Origin: a virus
Lineage: Duplodnaviria > Heunggongvirae > Uroviricota > Caudoviricetes
DNA length: 40,925 bases
Direction: 5' to 3' (one strand)
IMG/VR virus record: IMGVR_UViG_2671180437_000016
Location: 1-40,925 of that record
The notes under the pieces were generated by a model. That model was given only the letters and a program-made list of their open reading frames with translations. It did not search any database and was not told the DNA's origin. This document shows positions 1-40,925 of the stretch, one piece after another. A program made the position numbers and the translations under genes. How positions within the stretch are numbered: the stretch's first letter is position 1; each line of letters opens with the position of its first letter.

Positions 1-1251
1 GTGCTTACCGATACAAAATTAAAGAACCTCAAGCCACAGGACAAACTGTACAAAGTTTCCGATCGTGACGGGCTGTATGTAGCTGTGCTTACGTCAGGTA
101 CGGTCTCGTTTCGCTATGACTACCGTATCAACGGTCGCCGCGAAACACTGGTAATCGGGCAGTATGGGCGTGACGGTATCAGCCTGGCAGAAGCGCGAGA
201 AGAACTGATTGCTGCAAAGAAGCTGCTTAAAGCAGGCCAGTCGCCGGCTGCGGCTAAACGTGACGGTATCAAAAAGATTCGTGGTGCCGAGACGTTTGCG
301 GTACATACCGACAGTTATATGAAACACGTCATCCTGGCTGACAGTACCCGCGCAATGAAGCAGGCGGTGATCGACCGTGACATACTTCCGGTTCTTGGCA
401 ACAAAATGATGGCTGAAATTACCACATCGATGGTTCGTGATTTGTGTGACCGGATTGTCGAACGCGGTGGTCGGGCAACAGCAGTACAGGCCAGGGAGAT
501 CATCAGCAGCGTATACCGTCACGCCAATGACCGTGGTCATGGTTTGTTTAATCCTGCGGCTGACATTAAACCTTCGTCTATCGCCATATTTAAACCACGA
601 GAGCGAACACTGACACCAGAAGAAATTGGCCTGTTCTTCCGCATGCTGGATGCCATTGGTGCTATGGGCACTATGAAAATGGCTTTAAAGCTGGTGCTTA
701 TCACTATGGTTCGTAAAGGCGAATTCACCAATGCAACGTGGGATGAAATAGATTTTAAAAAATGGACATGGACAATTCCTTCAGACCGCATGAAGGGAAG
801 CCGGGCGCACGTTATTTACCTGCCTAAACAGGCACAGGATATATTGGTTGGGTTGCAGATGTGCGCAGGTGGAAGTGAATATCTGGTTCCTGGTCGTTAC
901 AATTTCCGGAAGCCATTATCTAATGCCGCGCTGAACTCTCTGATCGACAGAACGGTGAAAATAATAAATGAAGATGGTGAGCATATTCAGGACTTCACCG
1001 TACACGATATGCGCCGTACAGCAAGTACGTTGTTGCATGAGGCTGGTTATCCTTCAGACTGGATTGAAAAGGCTCTGGCACATGAGCAGAAAGGTGTGCG
1101 CGCCGTATATAACAAAGCGGAATACGCCAGACAGCGCGCCTACATGTTGCAGCAGTGGGCCGATATGATTGATTCCTGGATTAACGGGGAGCATACGGAT
1201 CTGATTCCGTTCTCCCCGTCGAAGTTTGAGAAGTGGATGGCGGGGGAATAA
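1..1251 (+). CDS. int: Tyrosine recombinase / phage integrase (P4-type); N-terminus may be clipped by window start
   Basis: 416-aa ORF; N-terminal 'LTDTKLKNLKPQDKLYKVSDRDGLY' arm-binding-like region, C-terminal 'HDMRRTASTLLHEAGY...VRAVY' catalytic region typical of tyrosine integrases; GTG at position 1. Confidence 0.9.
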   Translation: MLTDTKLKNLKPQDKLYKVSDRDGLYVAVLTSGTVSFRYDYRINGRRETLVIGQYGRDGISLAEAREELIAAKKLLKAGQSPAAAKRDGIKKIRGAETFAVHTDSYMKHVILADSTRAMKQAVIDRDILPVLGNKMMAEITTSMVRDLCDRIVERGGRATAVQAREIISSVYRHANDRGHGLFNPAADIKPSSIAIFKPRERTLTPEEIGLFFRMLDAIGAMGTMKMALKLVLITMVRKGEFTNATWDEIDFKKWTWTIPSDRMKGSRAHVIYLPKQAQDILVGLQMCAGGSEYLVPGRYNFRKPLSNAALNSLIDRTVKIINEDGEHIQDFTVHDMRRTASTLLHEAGYPSDWIEKALAHEQKGVRAVYNKAEYARQRAYMLQQWADMIDSWINGEHTDLIPFSPSKFEKWMAGE

Positions 1252-1254
1252 CGT

Positions 1255-1449
1255 TTAATAGTTCTGCTGATTTTCTTCCATCTCTGCTTCTGCTGCCAGT
1301 GATTCAATTTTGTTTTCGAATATTGCTGACAGTGTTGCAAATTCAGCATCAGTGACAGCGGGAATTGGAACAAACCTGATCCCGCTGTGTGCAAGCATGT
1401 TTGCAGTTTCAAGGCATTTTCTTAAATCTGCTGGTGATGCCCTGTTCAT
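1255..1449 (-). CDS. Small acidic hypothetical protein (64 aa), translationally coupled to methyltransferase
   Basis: ATG at 1449-1447 overlaps methylase stop (ATGA overlap); internal start of 104-aa track ORF 1255..1569; no recognisable domain. Confidence 0.3.
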   Translation of the reverse strand: MNRASPADLRKCLETANMLAHSGIRFVPIPAVTDAEFATLSAIFENKIESLAAEAEMEENQQNY

Positions 1450-2096
1450 GCAGCACGCTCCCGCCCCTGGATGTCTGTTGGTGACAGCGGAGCATTGCTG
1501 AATGCATTTGTTAATCCGCCAATATCCAACGCGTATCCAGGGTGTAGTTGCACTGCCGGGTCTTCGCACTGATTACCCCAAACATCGAAGCCATGAGACG
1601 TCTGGCGGGCGAACAGTTCAATGCGAGAAACATCGCCTAATAATTGCACAAGTTTTTCACGAACGATATCTGGCTTTCTTGAATGCTCAAGCCGCGGTGC
1701 GGTAAATGACTGAACGATCCCTGCATTAATGCGCGTAGGTAGTTTTCCCTTTACCGCAAACAGGCAATCTTCACTATTGGCGCGAGTCATGTGTCCCATA
1801 CCCATAACCAGTTTATCTTGTTGTCGACTACCACATTTTATCCACGTGAAGCCCTTCATCGTCATCAGACGGAATCCCCAGGCTTCAACAACTTTTAGTG
1901 CTTCGAGTGGTTGTGTTGGCACCCACCACATGGCCAACAGACAGTTTTCATCGGCCAAATCCCACACAGGAAGGCGGCAGATATCCAGCACACTCATAAC
2001 CGGATATTTGAAACCGGCACCGCGATTACCATCTGCGGCTTTGTCCCGGTATACCCAGGGTGGATCTGCATAGATTAGTGTGTATTTCTTAGTCAT
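1446..2096 (-). CDS. DNA N6-adenine methyltransferase (MT-A70/Dam-like, orphan)
   Basis: Motif 'LIYADPPW' (DPPW catalytic motif) near N-terminus, 'FDVWGN' near C-terminus; start taken at MTKKY (ATG 2096) with GGGGTGG upstream; no adjacent restriction endonuclease. Confidence 0.8.
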   Translation of the reverse strand: MTKKYTLIYADPPWVYRDKAADGNRGAGFKYPVMSVLDICRLPVWDLADENCLLAMWWVPTQPLEALKVVEAWGFRLMTMKGFTWIKCGSRQQDKLVMGMGHMTRANSEDCLFAVKGKLPTRINAGIVQSFTAPRLEHSRKPDIVREKLVQLLGDVSRIELFARQTSHGFDVWGNQCEDPAVQLHPGYALDIGGLTNAFSNAPLSPTDIQGRERAA

Positions 2097-2355
2097 AAAC
2101 CACCCCACAACATCCTATGCCGCTATAGTCGCCACGGCGAAGGCCGTTACCTTTTGTGATACATTGGTCCCTGCGAACCGCGATCCTTGCACGTTCAACA
2201 TCACCAGAAGCAACATCCATACACTGAAGCCAAAGGTGGGCGGCAATGCGGAACTGCCCTTTTTTCTCTCTTTCAATCGCGCGTTTTTCGATCTCTATCG
2301 CCGCAGGAGTAACGGCAACAACCTTTGAAGGGCTGCGCATTGAAACCTTGTTCAT
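2089..2355 (-). CDS. Hypothetical early protein
   Basis: ORF in early-left operon, stop overlaps methylase start by 8 nt; start chosen at MNKVSMRSP. Confidence 0.45.
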   Translation of the reverse strand: MNKVSMRSPSKVVAVTPAAIEIEKRAIEREKKGQFRIAAHLWLQCMDVASGDVERARIAVRRDQCITKGNGLRRGDYSGIGCCGVVYD

Positions 2356-2497
2356 GTGATATTTTTCAAGTCGGCTTAACTTTCTCACTTAATCCAACCC
2401 TCTCTGAAAATTAATGCCAGCAGATAAAGCCATGCTGAAACAGAGGCCAGGAATAAGTACCATCCTGACCATTTGCTCCAGTGCCTTAGCAGCACAC

Positions 2498-2746
2498 TCA
2501 TGCCGCGTTGCTCACAGGACGATATACACGTTGCTGAACAGGAGGCTTTTTACCCTGGAACTCTGCCGGGCTTGCTGCCTGACGTTCATCAAGCCAACGC
2601 TCAACTTCATCACGGTTCCATGCGCAGCGTTTATCGGTGATATACCAGCGTTTAGGAAATTCCCCTGCGCGCTCCATACGGTCGATAGTGCTCCATGACA
2701 GTGGCACCACCGCCAGGAGTTCTTTCTTACCTAATGCACCTTTCAT
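2498..2746 (-). CDS. AlpA-family transcriptional regulator / excisionase-like protein
   Basis: 82 aa; 'WSTIDRMERAGEFPKRWYITDKRCAWNRDEVERWLDER' resembles AlpA/Xis-type winged-helix proteins that accompany P4-type integrases. Confidence 0.7.
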   Translation of the reverse strand: MKGALGKKELLAVVPLSWSTIDRMERAGEFPKRWYITDKRCAWNRDEVERWLDERQAASPAEFQGKKPPVQQRVYRPVSNAA

Positions 2747-2795
2747 GAATACCTCTCTTGGTTGCAGTGCGGCGCACGTGGCGCCGCGGTGGTGG

Positions 2796-3818
2796 TTACT
2801 CGAATTCTGGACGCATATCGTTAAGCGTCATCATGAATTTTTGGTGATATTCATCACCGAGCTTTTCAGCCATGGTGTTAATTTCATTTTCAGCGCGCTT
2901 GAACATCGTTTTTGCATCTTCAGCAGATGGATCCAGGCTATTAAGTATCGCGATGATATATTCTCGAGCTTCTTCTCGTTCTGAATCTGAAATTGGCGAC
3001 AGGTGTTGACGCTCATCGTCAACTACGGAATATTCACCAGTGATAACAGCTGCGTTATCTTGGCTAAGTCCAGCTTCAGCGCGCTCATCCATAACAACAG
3101 CCTTCTGCATTTCAATAGAAACAGGAAGATATTTGAACAGTCGGCGAATTACTGTTTTTTTAGCCATCTCATCGAAGTGATCAACCCATGGGCCACTGCT
3201 ACCGGCTTTGCTCAGTGCACGAACTTTCTCAACGTCTGCCCGGCTCATAACTTCAAATTGGACTCCGCCATCTTTCAGTCGTGCAACGGCGTAAACGTGC
3301 GTTAATTCTCCGCGGTCACCTGTTTCGCAAGGTAAATGCTCGAGCGTTTCTTCCAGGCCGTATGAGTAGCTGAATTTGTCGTTTGTATGTACGGTACGAG
3401 CCGAGATACTCAGGATCTGCCCAGAGCGGCGGGCAAGGTCAATCATTCCGCGATAGCCGATAATCAGCTGTGCTTCTGTAGATACGGTTTCCCATCTTCC
3501 ATTTACTTTCTGGCGTTTGTCGAACGGTATCAGGTAAGCGTGTCCAAGAGCTCCGCCTGGTTCAAGACCCAATTGGGCACATTGCATAATTGCCCCCAGG
3601 AAGCTGGCTTGGTCGCATGATGCAAGTTTTGGAACCTTTCTGATCTCTGTGGTTGCTATGCGCGCCAGACGGTCTGCTGTCATGTGCTTTGGAAGTGCCA
3701 AAGCCATCTGAGCTTTAATTTTTGGGTCTGCCAGAAGTCCGGCCAGAGTTGTTGGTTTCTCATTATGATGTGCAACTTGGTTACCGGTAGCCGCTGCCTT
3801 AAGTGCATTGATAGACAT
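2796..3818 (-). CDS. recT: RecT-family ssDNA annealing recombinase
   Basis: 340 aa; RecT-like central region 'AYLIPFDKRQKVNGRWETVSTEAQLIIGYRGMIDLARRSG'; immediately downstream of exonuclease gene as in RecET/YqaJ-RecT pairs. Confidence 0.85.
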   Translation of the reverse strand: MSINALKAAATGNQVAHHNEKPTTLAGLLADPKIKAQMALALPKHMTADRLARIATTEIRKVPKLASCDQASFLGAIMQCAQLGLEPGGALGHAYLIPFDKRQKVNGRWETVSTEAQLIIGYRGMIDLARRSGQILSISARTVHTNDKFSYSYGLEETLEHLPCETGDRGELTHVYAVARLKDGGVQFEVMSRADVEKVRALSKAGSSGPWVDHFDEMAKKTVIRRLFKYLPVSIEMQKAVVMDERAEAGLSQDNAAVITGEYSVVDDERQHLSPISDSEREEAREYIIAILNSLDPSAEDAKTMFKRAENEINTMAEKLGDEYHQKFMMTLNDMRPEFE

Positions 3819-3827
3819 TTTTTCTCC

Positions 3828-4727
3828 TTACTTCATTCTGAAGACGCGTTGTGTCGTTGTTGTTTTGAATTTTTCGAATAACTCAGGGTGTACTGACTGG
3901 AATAGCTTCTGGTCGAATCTGTTGCTGATCTGAGATTTCCATGTGCAGAGCGGCTTTCCGTCCAGGGTCAGGACTGAGTGCTCTTGCATGTACATCTTCA
4001 GCTTCTCTTCTGATATAGCTATTTCTTCTTCCAGTGATTTTCTGCGTGATTTCATGTCTCGTAGATCGTTGAATAGTGCGAGTGCCTTTCCGTCAGCCTC
4101 GATACTTGTCCCGGCATCTTTCTCAAACATCAGCGATACATCGCTTACGCTGGTAGCTTCCGGCGGGTTAAGATTTTTCACTCGGTCCCAGAAAGCGATT
4201 TCTTTTTCTAAGATCGCCTGGATAGTTTCTTCATCACGCTCAACCCGATAGATTCGGAAGTCGTCGCCACCGATAAGCACACCGAAAACGCATACCTGTT
4301 TGTTTGTAACCATCAACCCGTGCATGGCCTGGGCCGTGTAATGCACAGGAATTGCATCTGTCTGGATTTCTCCCCATTCTTTGGCTTTGAACGGACTAAC
4401 TGTTTTGATCTCAATGTTCTCGCCTGACGCTGCTTCTGCATCGATCTCAGCTGCAATAAAATCGTAATCACGGTGGATATAGCGGTTTCCGCGATGAACG
4501 ATTTCCATCCCTGTTTCCTCAGAAAGCAGGTCTATTACGTATGGCTCCATACGCTGGCCACGCGTGAAAACTTTCTGCTTGCTTGGGTCTACTGGTTTGA
4601 CACGTGGCTGGACCTTATCCAGATAAACCTCAAGCGGGGTGCGCCATGGGCTAATTCCAAGAATCCCTGCAACATCGCTTCCTCCGATGTATTTTGTTCT
4701 ATCCATGATTCCAGCGTTCCGCATCAT
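3828..4727 (-). CDS. YqaJ-like viral recombinase exonuclease (PD-(D/E)xK, lambda Exo-like)
   Basis: 299 aa; N-terminal 'RTKYIGGSDVAGILGISPWRTPLEVY' is the YqaJ signature; partner of RecT. Confidence 0.85.
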   Translation of the reverse strand: MMRNAGIMDRTKYIGGSDVAGILGISPWRTPLEVYLDKVQPRVKPVDPSKQKVFTRGQRMEPYVIDLLSEETGMEIVHRGNRYIHRDYDFIAAEIDAEAASGENIEIKTVSPFKAKEWGEIQTDAIPVHYTAQAMHGLMVTNKQVCVFGVLIGGDDFRIYRVERDEETIQAILEKEIAFWDRVKNLNPPEATSVSDVSLMFEKDAGTSIEADGKALALFNDLRDMKSRRKSLEEEIAISEEKLKMYMQEHSVLTLDGKPLCTWKSQISNRFDQKLFQSVHPELFEKFKTTTTQRVFRMK

Positions 4728-5038
4728 GCCGCGTCCCTCTGCCCATCAAGCTGATCCGCCAGATCCCAGCGCGCTATAATTGCCATTGCCTCGCGCCGGT
4801 AGGCATCCATCAGTTCTTCGAACTCAGGGCTGTCTTTAGCAGCCTCCAGCACTTCCTGACGAACGCCTTTGCCTGTTACAACGTCGAAAGTTGAGGACAG
4901 TTGATGAAGTCGGATGCTCTCAATCAGTTCAACTTGTCGGTCATATAGCTGTTCTGACAGGCGGTAGTCCTTGTCGAATGCCAGCATGATTTTTTGAAGA
5001 TTTTTCTGCTGATTAACGTTCATTATCAGCCCTCCCAT
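4724..5038 (-). CDS. Hypothetical early protein
   Basis: 104-aa ORF overlapping exonuclease start (ATGA-type overlap); no recognisable domain. Confidence 0.5.
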   Translation of the reverse strand: MGGLIMNVNQQKNLQKIMLAFDKDYRLSEQLYDRQVELIESIRLHQLSSTFDVVTGKGVRQEVLEAAKDSPEFEELMDAYRREAMAIIARWDLADQLDGQRDAA

Positions 5039-5178
5039 ATCTCGTTATCGTTGGCTACATCGCGAGCTTCTTTGCTGACGAAAGCCCACTTAATGCCTTC
5101 CTGTAAGGTGCGGAACTTCCAGCTCATGAATCCGCATGCAGTAACGCAGTACCAACCGTTGATGATTTTCCACTGCAT
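5026..5178 (-). CDS. Small hypothetical protein (50 aa), first gene of early-left operon
   Basis: ATG at 5178, stop overlaps next gene start; below ORF-track size cutoff; lies directly downstream of operator-bearing promoter region. Confidence 0.3.
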   Translation of the reverse strand: MQWKIINGWYCVTACGFMSWKFRTLQEGIKWAFVSKEARDVANDNEIWEG

Positions 5179-5210
5179 AACTTGTTACCTCGGTCTGTTA
5201 CCTCAGTCTG

Positions 5211-5225
5211 TTACCGTTGAGGTAA
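5211..5225. promoter_or_regulatory. Operator-like palindrome TTACC-GTTGA-GGTAA (OL-type site)
   Basis: Perfect TTACC-N5-GGTAA inverted repeat between repressor 3' end and early-left operon; preceded by tandem 13-bp repeats GTTACCTC(G/A)GTCT at 5184-5209. Confidence 0.6.
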
Positions 5226-5272
5226 TAATTATGCTTATTTGGTTTGGTGTCAATAGATATGAGTTAAAAAAA

Positions 5273-5287
5273 TTACCCGTAAGGTAA
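5273..5287. promoter_or_regulatory. Operator-like palindrome TTACC-CGTAA-GGTAA
   Basis: Perfect TTACC-N5-GGTAA; identical 15-mer recurs at 33500-33514. Confidence 0.6.
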
Positions 5288-5299
5288 TCTATCTGGCAA

Positions 5300-5322
5300 T
5301 AAAAAAGCCGCCATGAGGCGGC
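5300..5322 (-). terminator. Rho-independent terminator after repressor gene
   Basis: Stem GCCGCC/GGCGGC with ATGA loop; run of A on plus strand (U-run on minus) immediately 3' of repressor stop. Confidence 0.6.
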
Positions 5323-5344
5323 TTACTTACTGAAAAATATAGTT

Positions 5345-5929
5345 TTATTGTTTGCTTTTTTCGTTCTGGTTGATGACAAATTCAATGTAACTTTCGATCT
5401 TTGCTTTCTCGGTTTCGGGTAACAATGCGTAGCGCGAGCGGTCATAGTTGATAGTCGCAGGGTCGTGCGGGTGAATCAGTAATTCATAGCCGTGACGCCC
5501 GAATGCGGATGCAACATTCTCCAGGGTGGAAATGGAAACGCTGACCTCATTGTTTAACAGGCGACTGATTGTCACCTGGGCGACGCCGGATGCGCGGTGA
5601 AGTTTTCCCTGCGTTGAAAGGTCGCGGCTTTCGCTCATCCAGCGTTCCAGGTTGTGAGCCGCCAGCTGACCAATGTCGCTTGGGCCGACAGGCTGAAAAC
5701 CTTCCTGAGAAAGCGAGCGATCGATATCAAGCCAGTTACGGGGTTTATTGGCGGCAGCTTCAATTTTTCGCGCAACCTGGTCGCCGATAACCTTCTTGCC
5801 AAGAGCCCAGCGGTTTACCAGATTTGCCTGAGTTCCAAGTTTTTCTGCCATCCGCGTCTGAACACCATTGAATTCACGGTCGATCAAGTCGTTGAGATTT
5901 TGCCTGCGGACGTCCTGGATACTTTTCAT
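5345..5929 (-). CDS. Prophage repressor (CI-like, two HTH regions, no recognisable S24 autocleavage domain)
   Basis: 194 aa, divergent from Cro-like gene across an operator-rich spacer; HTH-like segments 'MAEKLGTQANLVNRWALGKK' and 'ASGVAQVTISRLLNNEVSVSISTLENVA'; no Ala-Gly/Ser...Lys peptidase motif seen. Confidence 0.7.
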   Translation of the reverse strand: MKSIQDVRRQNLNDLIDREFNGVQTRMAEKLGTQANLVNRWALGKKVIGDQVARKIEAAANKPRNWLDIDRSLSQEGFQPVGPSDIGQLAAHNLERWMSESRDLSTQGKLHRASGVAQVTISRLLNNEVSVSISTLENVASAFGRHGYELLIHPHDPATINYDRSRYALLPETEKAKIESYIEFVINQNEKSKQ

Positions 5930-5984
5930 TTTCTGGAAAATCGCCTCATATATGAATCAGTAGATGATTCAATTTAAAGCAATA

Positions 5985-6047
5985 TTACCCAACAGGTAAA
6001 TGCACCTCATAGGTAACTATCCTTGATTTTTGTTACCTTATGGGTGA
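5985..6047. promoter_or_regulatory. Immunity-region operator cluster (three TTACC-N5-GGTAA-type sites) with divergent promoters
   Basis: Sites at 5985-5999 (TTACCCAACAGGTAA), 6002-6016 (GCACCTCATAGGTAA), 6033-6047 (TTACCTTATGGGTGA) between repressor start (5929) and Cro-like start (6084). Confidence 0.65.
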
Positions 6048-6083
6048 ATATTTATTATCTGAAATAAATATCAGGCAATAGCT

Positions 6084-6314
6084 ATGAGCGATAACGGACA
6101 TTTCGATTTCAAAAAGCACTGGCTTGCACTTACTCCGGATGAGCGTGAAGCCTTCGCACAGGAAGCCGGAACGACGAGTCACTATATCCAGACTCACTTA
6201 ACAGGTAAGCGCAAGATGCCAGGTAAGGTATTGATGAATGGGCTTTTTAAAGCCTGTAAAACAAGACAATGGCTGCGCTCAAAAGCAGAACTGGCATACT
6301 TCTTCTACTCATGA
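6084..6314 (+). CDS. Cro-like HTH regulator
   Basis: 76 aa, divergent from repressor; 'EAFAQEAGTTSHYIQTHLTGKRKMPGKVL' resembles Cro/YdaS-type HTH. Confidence 0.65.
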   Translation: MSDNGHFDFKKHWLALTPDEREAFAQEAGTTSHYIQTHLTGKRKMPGKVLMNGLFKACKTRQWLRSKAELAYFFYS

Positions 6315-6336
6315 TATCCAGCTACAACCCTCTGTA

Positions 6337-6358
6337 GACCGCCACCCGGCGGTCTTTT
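6337..6358 (+). terminator. Rho-independent terminator after Cro-like gene
   Basis: Stem GACCGCC/GGCGGTC, loop ACCC, followed by TTTT. Confidence 0.6.
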
Positions 6359-6369
6359 CATATCTATTC

Positions 6370-6384
6370 GTACCTCAAAGGTAA
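6370..6384. promoter_or_regulatory. Operator-like palindrome GTACC-TCAAA-GGTAA
   Basis: One-mismatch member of the TTACC-N5-GGTAA family, followed by AACC-N6-GGTT inverted repeat and T-run (6390-6413). Confidence 0.5.
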
Positions 6385-6464
6385 TAAAAAACCAAATCTG
6401 GTTGATCTTTTTTTTGTGTCAGCACAAAATAACCGTAATCCCAATACTAATGACAGGGCTTACC

Positions 6465-6665
6465 ATGGAAATCATTACACGTATTGATGCCGCAAAGCGC
6501 GGACTTAAACGCTACTACACCGGAAAAACATGTAAGCACGGACATGACAGTGAACGCTGGGTTTACAACGGACACTGTGTTGAGTGCACCATGGAATCAA
6601 ACCGTCGCATCAGGGCAGAGATTAAGCAGATCATGATTAATTCCTCCCCACAACATTCAAGCTGA
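6465..6665 (+). CDS. Small Cys/His-rich (zinc-finger-like) protein in the cII position
   Basis: 66 aa from internal ATG of track ORF 6402..6665; 'CKHGHDSERWVYNGHCVEC'; function not recognisable. Confidence 0.4.
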   Translation: MEIITRIDAAKRGLKRYYTGKTCKHGHDSERWVYNGHCVECTMESNRRIRAEIKQIMINSSPQHSS

Positions 6666-6680
6666 TAGCGGAGATTAATC

Positions 6681-7496
6681 ATGAGCAGACATGCAACAGA
6701 TTGGGCCTGGGAGACAGATCCAGGTAGCTCGTCATTAAAGCTCATACTGCTCTCGATGGCTGACAGAGCCGATGAATATAACCTCTGCTACCCCAGCATA
6801 GAACGCCTCGTTAAAGACACTTGCCTGAATAAAAAAACCGTACAGGCCGGGCTTATATCGCTCATGAAAATGGGGCTTATTTCAGATACCGGAGAGAGAA
6901 AGGGTGCGACGAAAAGAGTGCGGGTTTTCTCTCTTAATATAACCAAAAACGGGAACATTAAAGGCAACCAGGAAGGGGAGAATGAACCCGAAAACGGTAA
7001 TGTTCCCGAAAACGGGAATATACCCAAAAACGGGATGTTGAATGATCCCAAAAACGGGATGTTGAATGATCCCAAAAACGGGATCCAGAACCAGTCATAT
7101 AACCAGTCATTTAACCAAGAGAGGGAGAGCAGGACAAAAACCGGGGATTCTGTGCCTCATGACCCCGGCGCAAACAACGCCGTGATGAATAACTTTGTTC
7201 CTCATGGTGGGCCAGGGCAATTAGGCAAATTTGTCATGCATGAACAATGGCAGCCATCAGATGACTTTCTTCGGAAAAGCTCATTGCAGGGAATCTACCT
7301 GGACAGTCTGCCAACGGCACAGGAACTTGCAGAGTTCAGAATTTACTGGATGGCTGAGGGTAAGGCATACCATCAGGCACAGTGGGAGCAGAAGCTGGCA
7401 AGGAGGCTGCAGATTAGCAGACAGAAGCAATCAACATTACCTGATAACAACGTTCCGCACTGGAACAGTCCTGAAGCATGGGAGGATTTCTTGTGA
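6681..7496 (+). CDS. Replication initiator (lambda O-like, N-terminal winged-helix) containing internal iterons
   Basis: 271 aa; N-terminal 'LKLILLSMADRADEYNLCYPSIERLVKDTCLNKKTVQAGLISLMKMGLIS'; repetitive 'ENGNVPENGNIPKNGMLNDPKNGMLNDPKNG' encoded by DNA direct repeats. Confidence 0.75.
   Translation: MSRHATDWAWETDPGSSSLKLILLSMADRADEYNLCYPSIERLVKDTCLNKKTVQAGLISLMKMGLISDTGERKGATKRVRVFSLNITKNGNIKGNQEGENEPENGNVPENGNIPKNGMLNDPKNGMLNDPKNGIQNQSYNQSFNQERESRTKTGDSVPHDPGANNAVMNNFVPHGGPGQLGKFVMHEQWQPSDDFLRKSSLQGIYLDSLPTAQELAEFRIYWMAEGKAYHQAQWEQKLARRLQISRQKQSTLPDNNVPHWNSPEAWEDFL
6987..7082. repeat. Iteron-like direct repeats (putative phage origin of replication) inside initiator gene
   Basis: Five copies of CCC(G/A)AAAACGG(G/T) starting at 6987, 7005, 7023, 7047, 7071; 24-bp unit CCCAAAAACGGGATGTTGAATGAT exactly duplicated; followed by AACCAGTCAT x2 (7089-7110). 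Confidence 0.65.
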
Positions 7497-15603: not shown

Positions 15604-15680
15604 TGGCGTGGCATGCAGGATTCGAACCTGCGACCAACCGCTTAGAAGGCGGTTGCTCTGTCCAACTGAGCTAATGCCAC
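15604..15680 (-). tRNA. tRNA-Arg (anticodon UCU)
   Basis: 77-nt cloverleaf read on minus strand: acceptor GTGGCAT/ATGCCAC, D-arm GCTC...GAGC, anticodon stem ACCGC/GCGGT with loop CTTCTAA (anticodon TCT), T-arm GCAGG-TTCGAAT-CCTGC, discriminator G + CCA. Confidence 0.85.
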
Positions 15681-34267: not shown

Positions 34268-34533
34268 AGTGATCACCTTTGTAGTTAGGTTAATCACCAC
34301 TACCGACGCCAATCGGTTGGTGGTGAACTGTGCAGGGTTGGCGTAACCGGCTACAAAGGACCCGGCGCACCTTTCGGTGCCCCCACACAGCCCACCATAG
34401 AATAGGTGCGCTTTACACATAAAAAAACCGCTTATGCGGCATATGTGCCCCTGTAGTAATCCGGGACGCCAATCCCGGCACTGGATTTTGCCAGTACCCG
34501 ATTACTATGGCACAAGAGGAGTGCAATGTAAAT

Positions 34534-37626: not shown

Positions 37627-37727
37627 GAGAAGTCATCGCCAAGGAATGCAGCGAGAAAACGCAAATATTGTATGTTGGCTATCATGCCCTAACTCTAATT
37701 TTAAATGACACAAGGATATTTATGATA

Positions 37728-37742
37728 TCACCTTTAAGGTAA
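37728..37742. promoter_or_regulatory. Operator-like palindrome TCACC-TTTAA-GGTAA upstream of lysis cassette
   Basis: One-mismatch family member; followed at 37776 by ACATATGGTTTATT motif. Confidence 0.5.
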
Positions 37743-37847
37743 TTTCGTTAAGAATTATCAGATCAAGTTTAATCCACATATGGTTTATTGTGTATGATGA
37801 ACTAACCAACTAAGGGGATTCTTTATGCACATTAAACGGTGTTTTTT

Positions 37848-38547: not shown

Positions 38548-39166
38548 ACAATTCCAGCGAGCTGCTGGTATTAGCGAGGCGCTGGCCGCACGCTGGTTCT
38601 CGCATATAACTTCTGCGATGAAAGAGTTTGGTATCAGCAAAGCTGAAGATCAGGCAATGTTTATTGCTCAGGTCGGGCATGAGTCTGGTGGATTCACCCG
38701 GTTGCAGGAAAATTTCAACTACAGCGTCACCGGACTGGCTAACTTCGTTCGGGCTGGGCGTCTCACTCAGGGACAGGCTAATGCACTTGGTCGCCGTGCT
38801 GGTGAACCACCATTGCCACTCGAGCGCCAGAGAGCGATCGCCAATCTGGTGTACAGCAAACGCATGGGGAACAATGCCTCTGGTGATGGCTGGAATTACC
38901 GTGGCCGCGGACTTATCCAGATTACCGGTTTGAATAACTATCGTGATTGCGGAAACGGCCTGAAAGTGGACCTGCTGGAGAATCCTGAACTGTTGGCGCA
39001 GGACGAATACGCGGCTCGTAGCGCGGCGTGGTTCTTCTCCAGCAAAGGTTGCATGAAGTATACCGGCGATATTGCACGTGTAACTCTGATTATCAATGGT
39101 GGCAGGAACGGCATCGACGACCGGCGCGCTCGGTACATCACTGCCAGTAAGGCGCTGGCGGTATGA
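38537..39166 (+). CDS. Endolysin, glycoside hydrolase family 19-like (chitinase-class lysozyme)
   Basis: 209 aa; '[12 protein letters not shown]' and '[17 protein letters not shown]' resemble GH19 catalytic motifs; between holin-like and spanin genes. Confidence 0.8.
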
Positions 39167-39660
39167 TCTGGGCATTCGTAAAAGCATACTGGAAACAGTT
39201 GGTTATCATGGCGATGCTTGCTGTTCTGGTCATATCAGGAGTTGTAGCCTGGAATGCACACGGCAGTCGTCAGTACGACGCCGGGTATGCGCAGGCACAG
39301 GAAGATCAGAAACAGGCTAATGATAAGGCTAGGTCACAACGTGATCAGGAGAAAACACAAATTGAACGTGAAGCACAATCCCGTATCGATGTGGCGCGTG
39401 TTGATGCTGAGCATGCTAATGCCGCTGCTGACAGCCTGCGCGCCGAGCTTGACAAAACCAAGCGACTCGCCGAACACTATACCGGATCTTTCCCCACTGG
39501 CACGCCAGCCAGCAAGGTCATCGGTGTGCTCGCCGACATGCTTGAAGAAAGCAATCGAGTTTACAACGCAACAGCAGCTGAGGCTGAAAAGTATCGGATT
39601 GCAGGAGAATCCTGCGAACAGCAATACGATTCACTGAAGAAGCAAAAATCGTGGTACTGA
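39163..39660 (+). CDS. i-spanin (Rz-like)
   Basis: 165 aa; N-terminal TM '[18 protein letters not shown]' then coiled-coil; ATGA overlap with endolysin stop. Confidence 0.7.
39389..39637 (+). CDS. o-spanin (Rz1-like lipoprotein) embedded in +1 frame of i-spanin
   Basis: Nested ORF with signal peptide and lipobox 'LLTAC', Pro-rich mature region; start codon uncertain (39389/39404/39413). Confidence 0.5.
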   Translation: MWRVLMLSMLMPLLTACAPSLTKPSDSPNTIPDLSPLARQPARSSVCSPTCLKKAIEFTTQQQLRLKSIGLQENPANSNTIH

Positions 39661-39784
39661 TTTTCGGTGACGGTATATAAAACGGTACGGTGAAAATCAG
39701 GTTGCAGAAAGTTGTTATCAGTCAATTGGTTATGCGTGTCGTAAATAATTGAGTGGGAATGATTTGACCCTGCACTATGAATGA

Positions 39785-39816
39785 ACAAAACCCTCTGTTA
39801 CTACAGAGGGTTTTTT
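39785..39816. terminator. Bidirectional rho-independent terminator after lysis cassette
   Basis: Stem CCCTCTG/CAGAGGG, loop TTACTA, A-run upstream and TTTTTT downstream. Confidence 0.65.
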
Positions 39817-39854
39817 ATCTTCAAGAATTATAGGATTGAAGTTACTAACATCGA

Positions 39855-40394
39855 TTAATTAAACCAGCTGTCCGATTTGTTCTCTTCTGCTTTGCCCACG
39901 CTTTTCATCAGATCGCGACCGCCTTCAGTCATATTTCTGTTGGCGTCAGCTTCAGATTGCACCACATCGGTTTGCGCAGCTTTGTGCTTCAGTTCCTGAT
40001 CGATAAATTCGTTTTCTCGCTTAACGCGGGCTTCTTCTTTTGCCAGCGCCAGTTTTTGTTTCTGAATCTCTAAGCTGCGTAGCTCATCTTCATAACTTTG
40101 ATCGCGTTTTTTGTCCGCAGAGGCTTCGGCGTCCAGTTTATCCTGACGAGCTTTCTTATTTGCCGCTGCCGTTGCCGCTCTTTTGTTAGCGGCGGCCTGG
40201 GCATTTGCGCGACGTTGCTTCTCTTGCTGGATTTCCCTGTTGCGCTCCGCGACCCATTCGTCATGCTGCCTTTGCTCTTCATTTTTACCTTGCTGTTCCG
40301 CTTCTGCGACAGCAGAGAGTTGATCCTGCAATGATGAGGCGATAGCCGGATAGCTTAAGGAGGCTAAGATGGCGCAAAGAAAAACTTTCTTCAT
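39855..40394 (-). CDS. Secreted coiled-coil protein of unknown function
   Basis: 179 aa; signal peptide 'MKKVFLCAILASLSYPAIASS'; Lys/Glu/Ala/Gln-rich coiled-coil body. Confidence 0.6.
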   Translation of the reverse strand: MKKVFLCAILASLSYPAIASSLQDQLSAVAEAEQQGKNEEQRQHDEWVAERNREIQQEKQRRANAQAAANKRAATAAANKKARQDKLDAEASADKKRDQSYEDELRSLEIQKQKLALAKEEARVKRENEFIDQELKHKAAQTDVVQSEADANRNMTEGGRDLMKSVGKAEENKSDSWFN

Positions 40395-40409
40395 GACTCC
40401 TCCTGATTA

Positions 40410-40925
40410 TTAGCTCTTTTCAGGACATTTGGTATTTGGCTGAATACGCGTTTCGTTATACGTCGTGGTAATAACAACGGCTAAACCTGTCGTAAACTGG
40501 CACTCTTTACCCACCTGGGTAGAGGTATACACTTTGGTGCCTTCCTTATAGGTTAAAGAAACACCTTCCACTAAGGTTTTATCATTCACCATAGAACCCG
40601 CTGCCGCGCCTACAGCTCCGCCGCCAACTGCACCTGCCGTCGTTCCGGAATTGCTGCCAGACCCGACGTTGTGGCCGATAACACCGCCAGCGACTGCGCC
40701 AATAAGCGCGCCGAAGGCTTGTGCGTTCCGTTTATTTTGGGAGTTGTCTACGGCAACTTTTGCGGGAAGAATGGAAATAATATTAACGGTTTTAGTTTCT
40801 TGTTTGGTATTCAGTTGATCGGTTTGATAAACATCGGCAGCATGATCGTCAGCATTTGACTGGCATCCTGCCAGAGTGAATGACGCTAACATTGCCACAG
40901 GCAGAAGACATTTTTTAAATTTCAT
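40410..40925 (-). CDS. Glycine-zipper outer-membrane lipoprotein (SlyB/YcfJ-like)
   Basis: 171 aa; lipobox 'LAGC'; 'GALIGAVAGGVIGHNVGSG' glycine-zipper motif resembling YcfJ/SlyB family; ATG at window end 40925. Confidence 0.6.
   Translation of the reverse strand: MKFKKCLLPVAMLASFTLAGCQSNADDHAADVYQTDQLNTKQETKTVNIISILPAKVAVDNSQNKRNAQAFGALIGAVAGGVIGHNVGSGSNSGTTAGAVGGGAVGAAAGSMVNDKTLVEGVSLTYKEGTKVYTSTQVGKECQFTTGLAVVITTTYNETRIQPNTKCPEKS

Follow-up and report, generated by a model that had tools for sequence, protein, structure and literature searches.

Host genes yfgI and yfgH follow the attR site of a Uetakevirus prophage integrated at the 3' end of guaA

Results

We analyzed the right end of a 40,925-nt stretch of viral DNA (that whole stretch is called the window here), where the lysis genes of a prophage are followed by two minus-strand ORFs. 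Both ORFs, which an earlier note made from the sequence alone had described, are present in the ORF list, and they lie at the end of the following series of features:

39163-39660, plus strand: Rz-type i-spanin, the last prophage gene; DUF2514 family in RefSeq lysogens
39661-39747, plus strand: phage-derived arm of attR; the attP arm found downstream of Rz in the free phage, absent from K-12
39748-39764, plus strand: attR core ATTGAGTGGGAATGATT, 17 bp, made up of the final 15 nt of guaA followed by TT
39765-39854, no strand assigned: host guaA-yfgI intergenic DNA, identical to K-12 MG1655, containing a hairpin terminator
39855-40394, minus strand: yfgI, a 179 aa ORF for an exported DUF5384 protein, host core gene; annotated yfgI (DUF5384 family protein) in RefSeq genomes
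40395-40409, minus strand: yfgH-yfgI spacer, 15 nt, with a strong Shine-Dalgarno sequence, AGGAGGAG, on the coding strand
40410-40925, minus strand: yfgH, a 171 aa ORF for a SlyB-like glycine-zipper outer-membrane lipoprotein, host core gene; annotated yfgH (outer membrane lipoprotein) in RefSeq genomes

The region does lie behind the spanins, as the earlier note had stated: an o-spanin ORF with the lipobox LLTAC is embedded in the +1 frame of the i-spanin gene at 39163-39660, and the homologues in phage Tyrion are annotated as a spanin with an embedded o-spanin.

Direct reading of the ORF at 39855-40394 gave the N-terminus MKKVFLCAILASLSYPAIA|SS, a typical Sec signal peptide. The encoded protein, which is very rich in charged residues and 100% identical to K-12 YfgI (b2506), belongs to the Pfam family DUF5384 (PF17358), which it matched with 208 bits (E 7.5e-62; cut-off 25) over profile positions 1-145 of 145. 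A single-sequence AlphaFold2 model of YfgI consists of one unbroken helix spanning residues 16-178, with a mean pLDDT of 88. YfgI would be exported by Sec as a single helix of ~160 residues. Previous work found that yfgI deletion mutants show 7% of wild-type survival on nalidixic acid and near normal survival on ampicillin and kasugamycin, and this sensitivity to nalidixic acid is the only phenotype reported for the deletion (PMC3536626).

In YfgH, direct reading of the sequence revealed the lipobox L-A-G-C, with Cys21 followed by Gln at position +2, and residues 72-113 form a glycine zipper that matched PF05433 with 33.2 bits against a cut-off of 24.2 (Pfam). The protein thus has both the lipobox cysteine and the 2TM glycine-zipper domain of a SlyB-like lipoprotein and is predicted to reach the outer membrane by Lol sorting and to have a glycine zipper of two helices. 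For this pair, the earlier description of a signal peptide with a helical body and of a SlyB-like lipoprotein agrees with the sequence, with Pfam, and with AlphaFold2. The part of YfgH encoded in the window is identical to residues 2-172 of K-12 YfgH (b2505), and the start codon annotated in RefSeq (GTG) lies 3 nt past the window end.

YfgH has been described in a preprint as an outer-membrane glycine-zipper lipoprotein, reported to stabilize the outer membrane under stress; its loss confers sensitivity to SDS/EDTA, as well as to the depletion of genes for outer-membrane biogenesis, the yfgH phenotype is suppressed by clsA mutations, and the protein is predicted, in AF3 models only, to form SlyB-like rings (bioRxiv 10.64898/2025.12.22.696046). 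YfgH would probably stabilize the outer membrane as SlyB-like rings. YfgH and SlyB share the lipobox and the 2TM glycine zipper, and according to the preprint they are structurally similar and stress-protective. They differ in their suppressors, which the preprint places in the Mla pathway for slyB and in clsA for yfgH, and in their gene context, since slyB is without a yfgI-like partner gene whereas yfgH has yfgI. In addition, SlyB forms ring nanodomains, whereas the YfgH oligomers are so far predicted only.

Together, yfgH and yfgI are a single two-gene host operon for envelope proteins. Published work likewise handled yfgHI as one operon, which SdiA regulates in S. Typhi and which S. Typhimurium lacks (PMC11619404).

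The DNA at 39748-40925 of the window differed from that of K-12 MG1655 by 1 mismatch in 1178 bases, and MG1655 has an empty attB, with no prophage at guaA-yfgI. When 5,426 complete E. coli genomes were searched by megablast with window positions 39661-40925 as the query, the yfgI-yfgH stretch was present in 5422 of them, with at least 80% coverage in 5367. In contrast, the phage sequence directly to its left (39400-39747) was present in only 250 complete E. coli genomes. The gene order in K-12 MG1655 is pdeF, yfgG, yfgH, yfgI, and then the convergent guaA and guaB. In a synteny survey of contigs, one genome per species, this order (pdeF-yfgG-yfgH-yfgI-guaA-guaB) was kept in E. coli, Shigella, E. 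ruysiae, E. whittamii, and E. albertii, and it was also found in cryptic Escherichia clades and in some Citrobacter. The yfgH-yfgI pair is therefore part of the E. coli core chromosome, standing in the same context in prophage-free strains. K-12 yfgH (b2505) and yfgI (b2506) have the same neighbors and the same terminator as the window copy, and nothing substantive differs between the two, guaA being displaced by ~40 kb by the prophage in this genome.

The match to K-12 begins at 39748, where ATTGAGTGGGAATGA supplies the final five codons of guaA (IEWE-stop), and phage genomes (Salmonella phage E15, Enterobacter phage Tyrion, and phiv142-3) match the window only to ~39765. Because the phage match and the host match overlap at ATTGAGTGGGAATGATT, positions 39748-39764, this 17-mer was taken as the core. 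In the Uetakevirus phages phiV10, epsilon15, and vB_EcoP_ZX5, the attP/attB core described previously is this same 17-mer, and for ZX5 it was confirmed experimentally by junction PCR and Sanger sequencing (PMC9782041). The window thus holds an exact copy of the 17-bp core at the phage/host junction, at the guaA stop codon, which is the same place as in phiV10, epsilon15, and ZX5. The Rz-attP-int order and a distance of 190 bp between the core and int are also common to the Uetakevirus guaA site. The only difference from the published site is that attR alone lies inside this window, attL being known from related lysogens. We conclude that the right end of the prophage, which the earlier note had considered not identifiable, is identifiable: attR is at 39748-39764, and the DNA from 39765 on is that of the host.

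A search with up to 3 mismatches found ATTGAGTGGGAATGATT as a single copy in the window, so that a direct repeat could not be found there and the boundary could not be set from the window alone. The earlier note had likewise found neither a direct repeat nor a tRNA fragment marking attR or attL. At either prophage end we found no tRNA or tRNA fragment as an attachment target, and an Rfam scan of 39600-40925 gave no matches. The only tRNA in the window, a tRNA-Arg (tct) at 15604-15680 on the minus strand, lies mid-prophage.

Both attachment sites can be seen in related lysogens. Isolate A357 carries the intact 17-mer twice, as attL at the end of an intact guaA and as attR beside yfgI; in strain 25-07338 the 17-mer is found as attL at the guaA end, and the attR copy is without one base. 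In both lysogens, int begins 190 bp after attL. The attL of the prophage studied here lies outside the window, which opens at the int start codon, and has been seen in the related lysogens only; judged from their sequences, it would lie just to the left of the window, ~190 bp upstream of int, in line with what the earlier note had thought probable. In strain 25-07338, the attR core (L002:3088-3103; ATTGAGTGGG-ATGATT) is one base shorter than the attL core of the same strain and than every other copy. The missing base reflects either an error in sequencing or a mutation, and such a mutation could impair excision.

Within the host intergenic DNA, a G+C-rich hairpin followed by a T-run is located at 39787-39814. 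Of the bidirectional terminator claimed earlier, the plus-strand hairpin with its T-run is real; the terminator scan called the plus strand only, and the minus-strand tail of the hairpin is a weaker TTTTGTT. We also considered the terminator as a part of the phage lysis operon and rejected this, because base for base it is the K-12 guaA/yfgI terminator; it belongs to the host. The phage arm on the int side (core to int, outside the window; L003:2519-2710 on the minus strand, L007:1134-1323, L005:2606-3113, and L006:2599-2788) has its own hairpin terminator, AACCCTCTGTTTTTACAGAGGGTTTTT, with a stem that is nearly the same as in the guaA terminator of the host, AACCCTCTGTTACTACAGAGGGTTTTTT. The spacer between core and hairpin is unrelated between the two.

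Over its body, the prophage shares 97-98% identity with the Uetakevirus phages phiv142-3, PAS61, ZX5, and phiV10. The genomes of these phages are 39.1-39.9 kb long, and int through attR, with 190 bp added, measures ~39.95 kb. In the free phages Tyrion and E15, spanin, attP, and int follow one another in this order, with 0 genes between. Between the tail-spike ORF and the first holin of the prophage (37627-37838) there is just ~210 bp of noncoding DNA of low GC (39%); in E15 and Tyrion an O-antigen ligase or acyltransferase gene is present between tail spike and holin. This serotype-conversion gene appears to be missing at 37627-37838 in the prophage. Rfam also identified, inside the prophage, a C4 antisense RNA (34316-34402, minus strand; 79.5 bits) and, adjacent to it, the Hfq-binding sRNA isrK (34421-34497, minus strand; 73.5 bits). 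The two are a P1/P7-type immunity RNA module in a Uetakevirus.

Discussion

We conclude, with a probability of about 0.97, that the region 39765-40925 is host chromosome outside the prophage. The earlier note had named host genes beyond attR as one of its two readings, and this one is correct: the DNA has a single difference from K-12 in 1178 bases, and 5422 of 5426 genomes contain the yfgI-yfgH stretch, whereas only 250 contain the phage end. The host status of yfgI and yfgH is in itself ordinary, already known biology.

The arrangement is explained as follows. A podovirus of the phiV10/epsilon15 type (genus Uetakevirus) has integrated by means of a P4-like tyrosine integrase, with recombination of attP and attB at the 17-bp core, at the extreme 3' end of guaA, and with strand exchange inside the core. 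At attL, guaA would remain intact, its last five codons being restored by the core. The phage arm carries a look-alike terminator, and guaA would therefore keep both its last codons and a terminator before int after integration. At attR, the DNA originally downstream of guaA (the terminator, yfgI, and yfgH) now follows the phage spanin genes, and integration has placed the host guaA/yfgI terminator behind the phage lysis genes.

The other reading in the earlier note was that yfgI and yfgH are lysogenic-conversion cargo, that is, a moron after the lysis cassette that is packaged and alters the envelope of the lysogen, like lambda bor. The two genes directly follow the spanins on the opposite strand and encode exported envelope proteins, and an envelope lipoprotein gene next after the spanins on the opposite strand is also what lambda has in bor. 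However, bor is inside the prophage and packaged, whereas yfgH and yfgI are outside attR and are found in prophage-free strains, and a Pfam scan gave no match to the Bor family at E<=0.1 for either protein. P7-like phage-plasmids do carry a paralogous pair as genuine cargo, but the pair considered here lies beyond the att core, is essentially identical to that of K-12, whose attB is empty, and occurs in ~5400 genomes as compared with 250 that have the phage end. Furthermore, both genes are absent from all free Uetakevirus genomes examined, in which Rz is followed by attP and int.

The cargo reading could also draw on GenBank, since the record of Escherichia phage TL-2011b includes yfgI and yfgH. 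This "complete genome" runs ~3.6 kb past attR (JQ011317.1 41164-44784; L004:4001-7621), through yfgI, yfgH, yfgG, and part of pdeF. We rejected it as evidence for cargo because it continues into yfgG and pdeF; the sole phage record with these chromosomal genes is an overshoot. Strains that lack the prophage have both genes as conserved parts of their chromosome, which is the very outcome that the earlier note had named as refuting cargo. The cargo reading is thus refuted; we assign it a very small probability.

With yfgI and yfgH placed in the host chromosome, the window extends ~1.16 kb beyond the prophage end. It opens at the int start codon and closes at the yfgH start of the gene caller, which suggests a cut at gene boundaries. 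We infer that a prophage predictor set both ends at its gene calls, by which attL would have been lost on the left and the right end would have run two genes past attR. The same over-extension affects at least one deposited phage genome, that of TL-2011b. The main value of the present result is therefore one of curation, in that it corrects a boundary. The right boundary of the prophage is fixed at 39764, and two host genes leave its supposed cargo. Counting yfgH and yfgI as phage-borne envelope factors would be an error, and a false "moron" call is avoided.

Annotation of a yfgH-like lipoprotein gene is inconsistent among phage records. The RefSeq records NC_019445.1, NC_050152.1, NC_031129.1, and NC_042128.1 label it 'DNA methyltransferase', while the GenBank originals of these records have 'outer membrane lipoprotein'. 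The methyltransferase label looks like a propagated misannotation.

In each of the 26 informative loci (L010-L037), which range from Escherichia to Pseudomonas and Haemophilus, yfgH was found directly upstream of yfgI, and the pair occurs without guaA nearby in Xenorhabdus, Pantoea, Pseudomonas duriflava, Haemophilus haemolyticus, and several MAGs. A tblastn search of phage and plasmid collections detected a diverged yfgH/yfgI pair (69% and 47.5% amino acid identity) in phage P7 and in P1-like phage-plasmids, with about 190 plasmids of ~80-145 kb among the matches listed. In P7 the pair is upf50.5/upf50.0 (AF503408.1 49507-50571; L009:4476-5540), located between the c4/icd/ant immI region and tubA. 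The arrangement is the same in P7, SJ46, RCS47, and JL22: a lipoprotein gene and then one for a DUF5384 protein, both products having signal peptides. The family can thus be phage-plasmid cargo. The P7/P1-like pair is true cargo of this kind and consists of diverged paralogues, whereas the window carries the chromosomal orthologues.

The consistency with which yfgH and yfgI occur together, on P7-like phage-plasmids as well, suggests that they act as a two-gene unit and that studies of YfgH should include YfgI; the YfgH preprint makes no mention of yfgI (bioRxiv 10.64898/2025.12.22.696046). It is conceivable, though we consider it rather unlikely, that yfgH and yfgI constitute an obligate envelope module in which YfgI partners the YfgH ring, and that this module is horizontally mobile, its diverged phage-plasmid copy being lysogenic-conversion cargo. 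The long helix of YfgI might then serve, for example, as a spacer or tether from the YfgH ring into the periplasm.

A more speculative view of the chromosomal pair is that yfgH-yfgI is of phage or plasmid origin, being what is left, now fixed, of an ancient mobile element that formerly had guaA as its attachment site. Such an origin would be consistent with the patchy distribution of the pair outside Escherichia and Citrobacter, where guaA is not nearby, with its presence in S. Typhi and absence from S. Typhimurium (PMC11619404), and with the diverged copy that travels on P7-like phage-plasmids, although in the last case the transfer could equally have gone from chromosome to plasmid. The yfgI-guaA gap hosts other insertions elsewhere, namely acyltransferase genes (L015) and an integrase fragment (L020), but the flanks of yfgHI in E. 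coli hold 0 att repeats, integrase genes, or other mobile-element genes, and the synteny of yfgHI is stable across the whole genus. Composition lends no support either, the GC content of yfgHI (~46-50%) being unremarkable, and we discarded composition as evidence for a foreign origin. Taken together, we regard descent from a mobile element as improbable.

Among the other occupants of the yfgI-guaA gap, Escherichia sp. E1V33 has two Acyl_transf_3 genes (L015:5541-10337), which are of the O-antigen acetylase type, as carried by Uetakeviruses. In Citrobacter sp. ANG330, the gap contains a truncated integrase (L020:5541-8300). With such remnants, the gap looks like a hot spot where integration has recurred.
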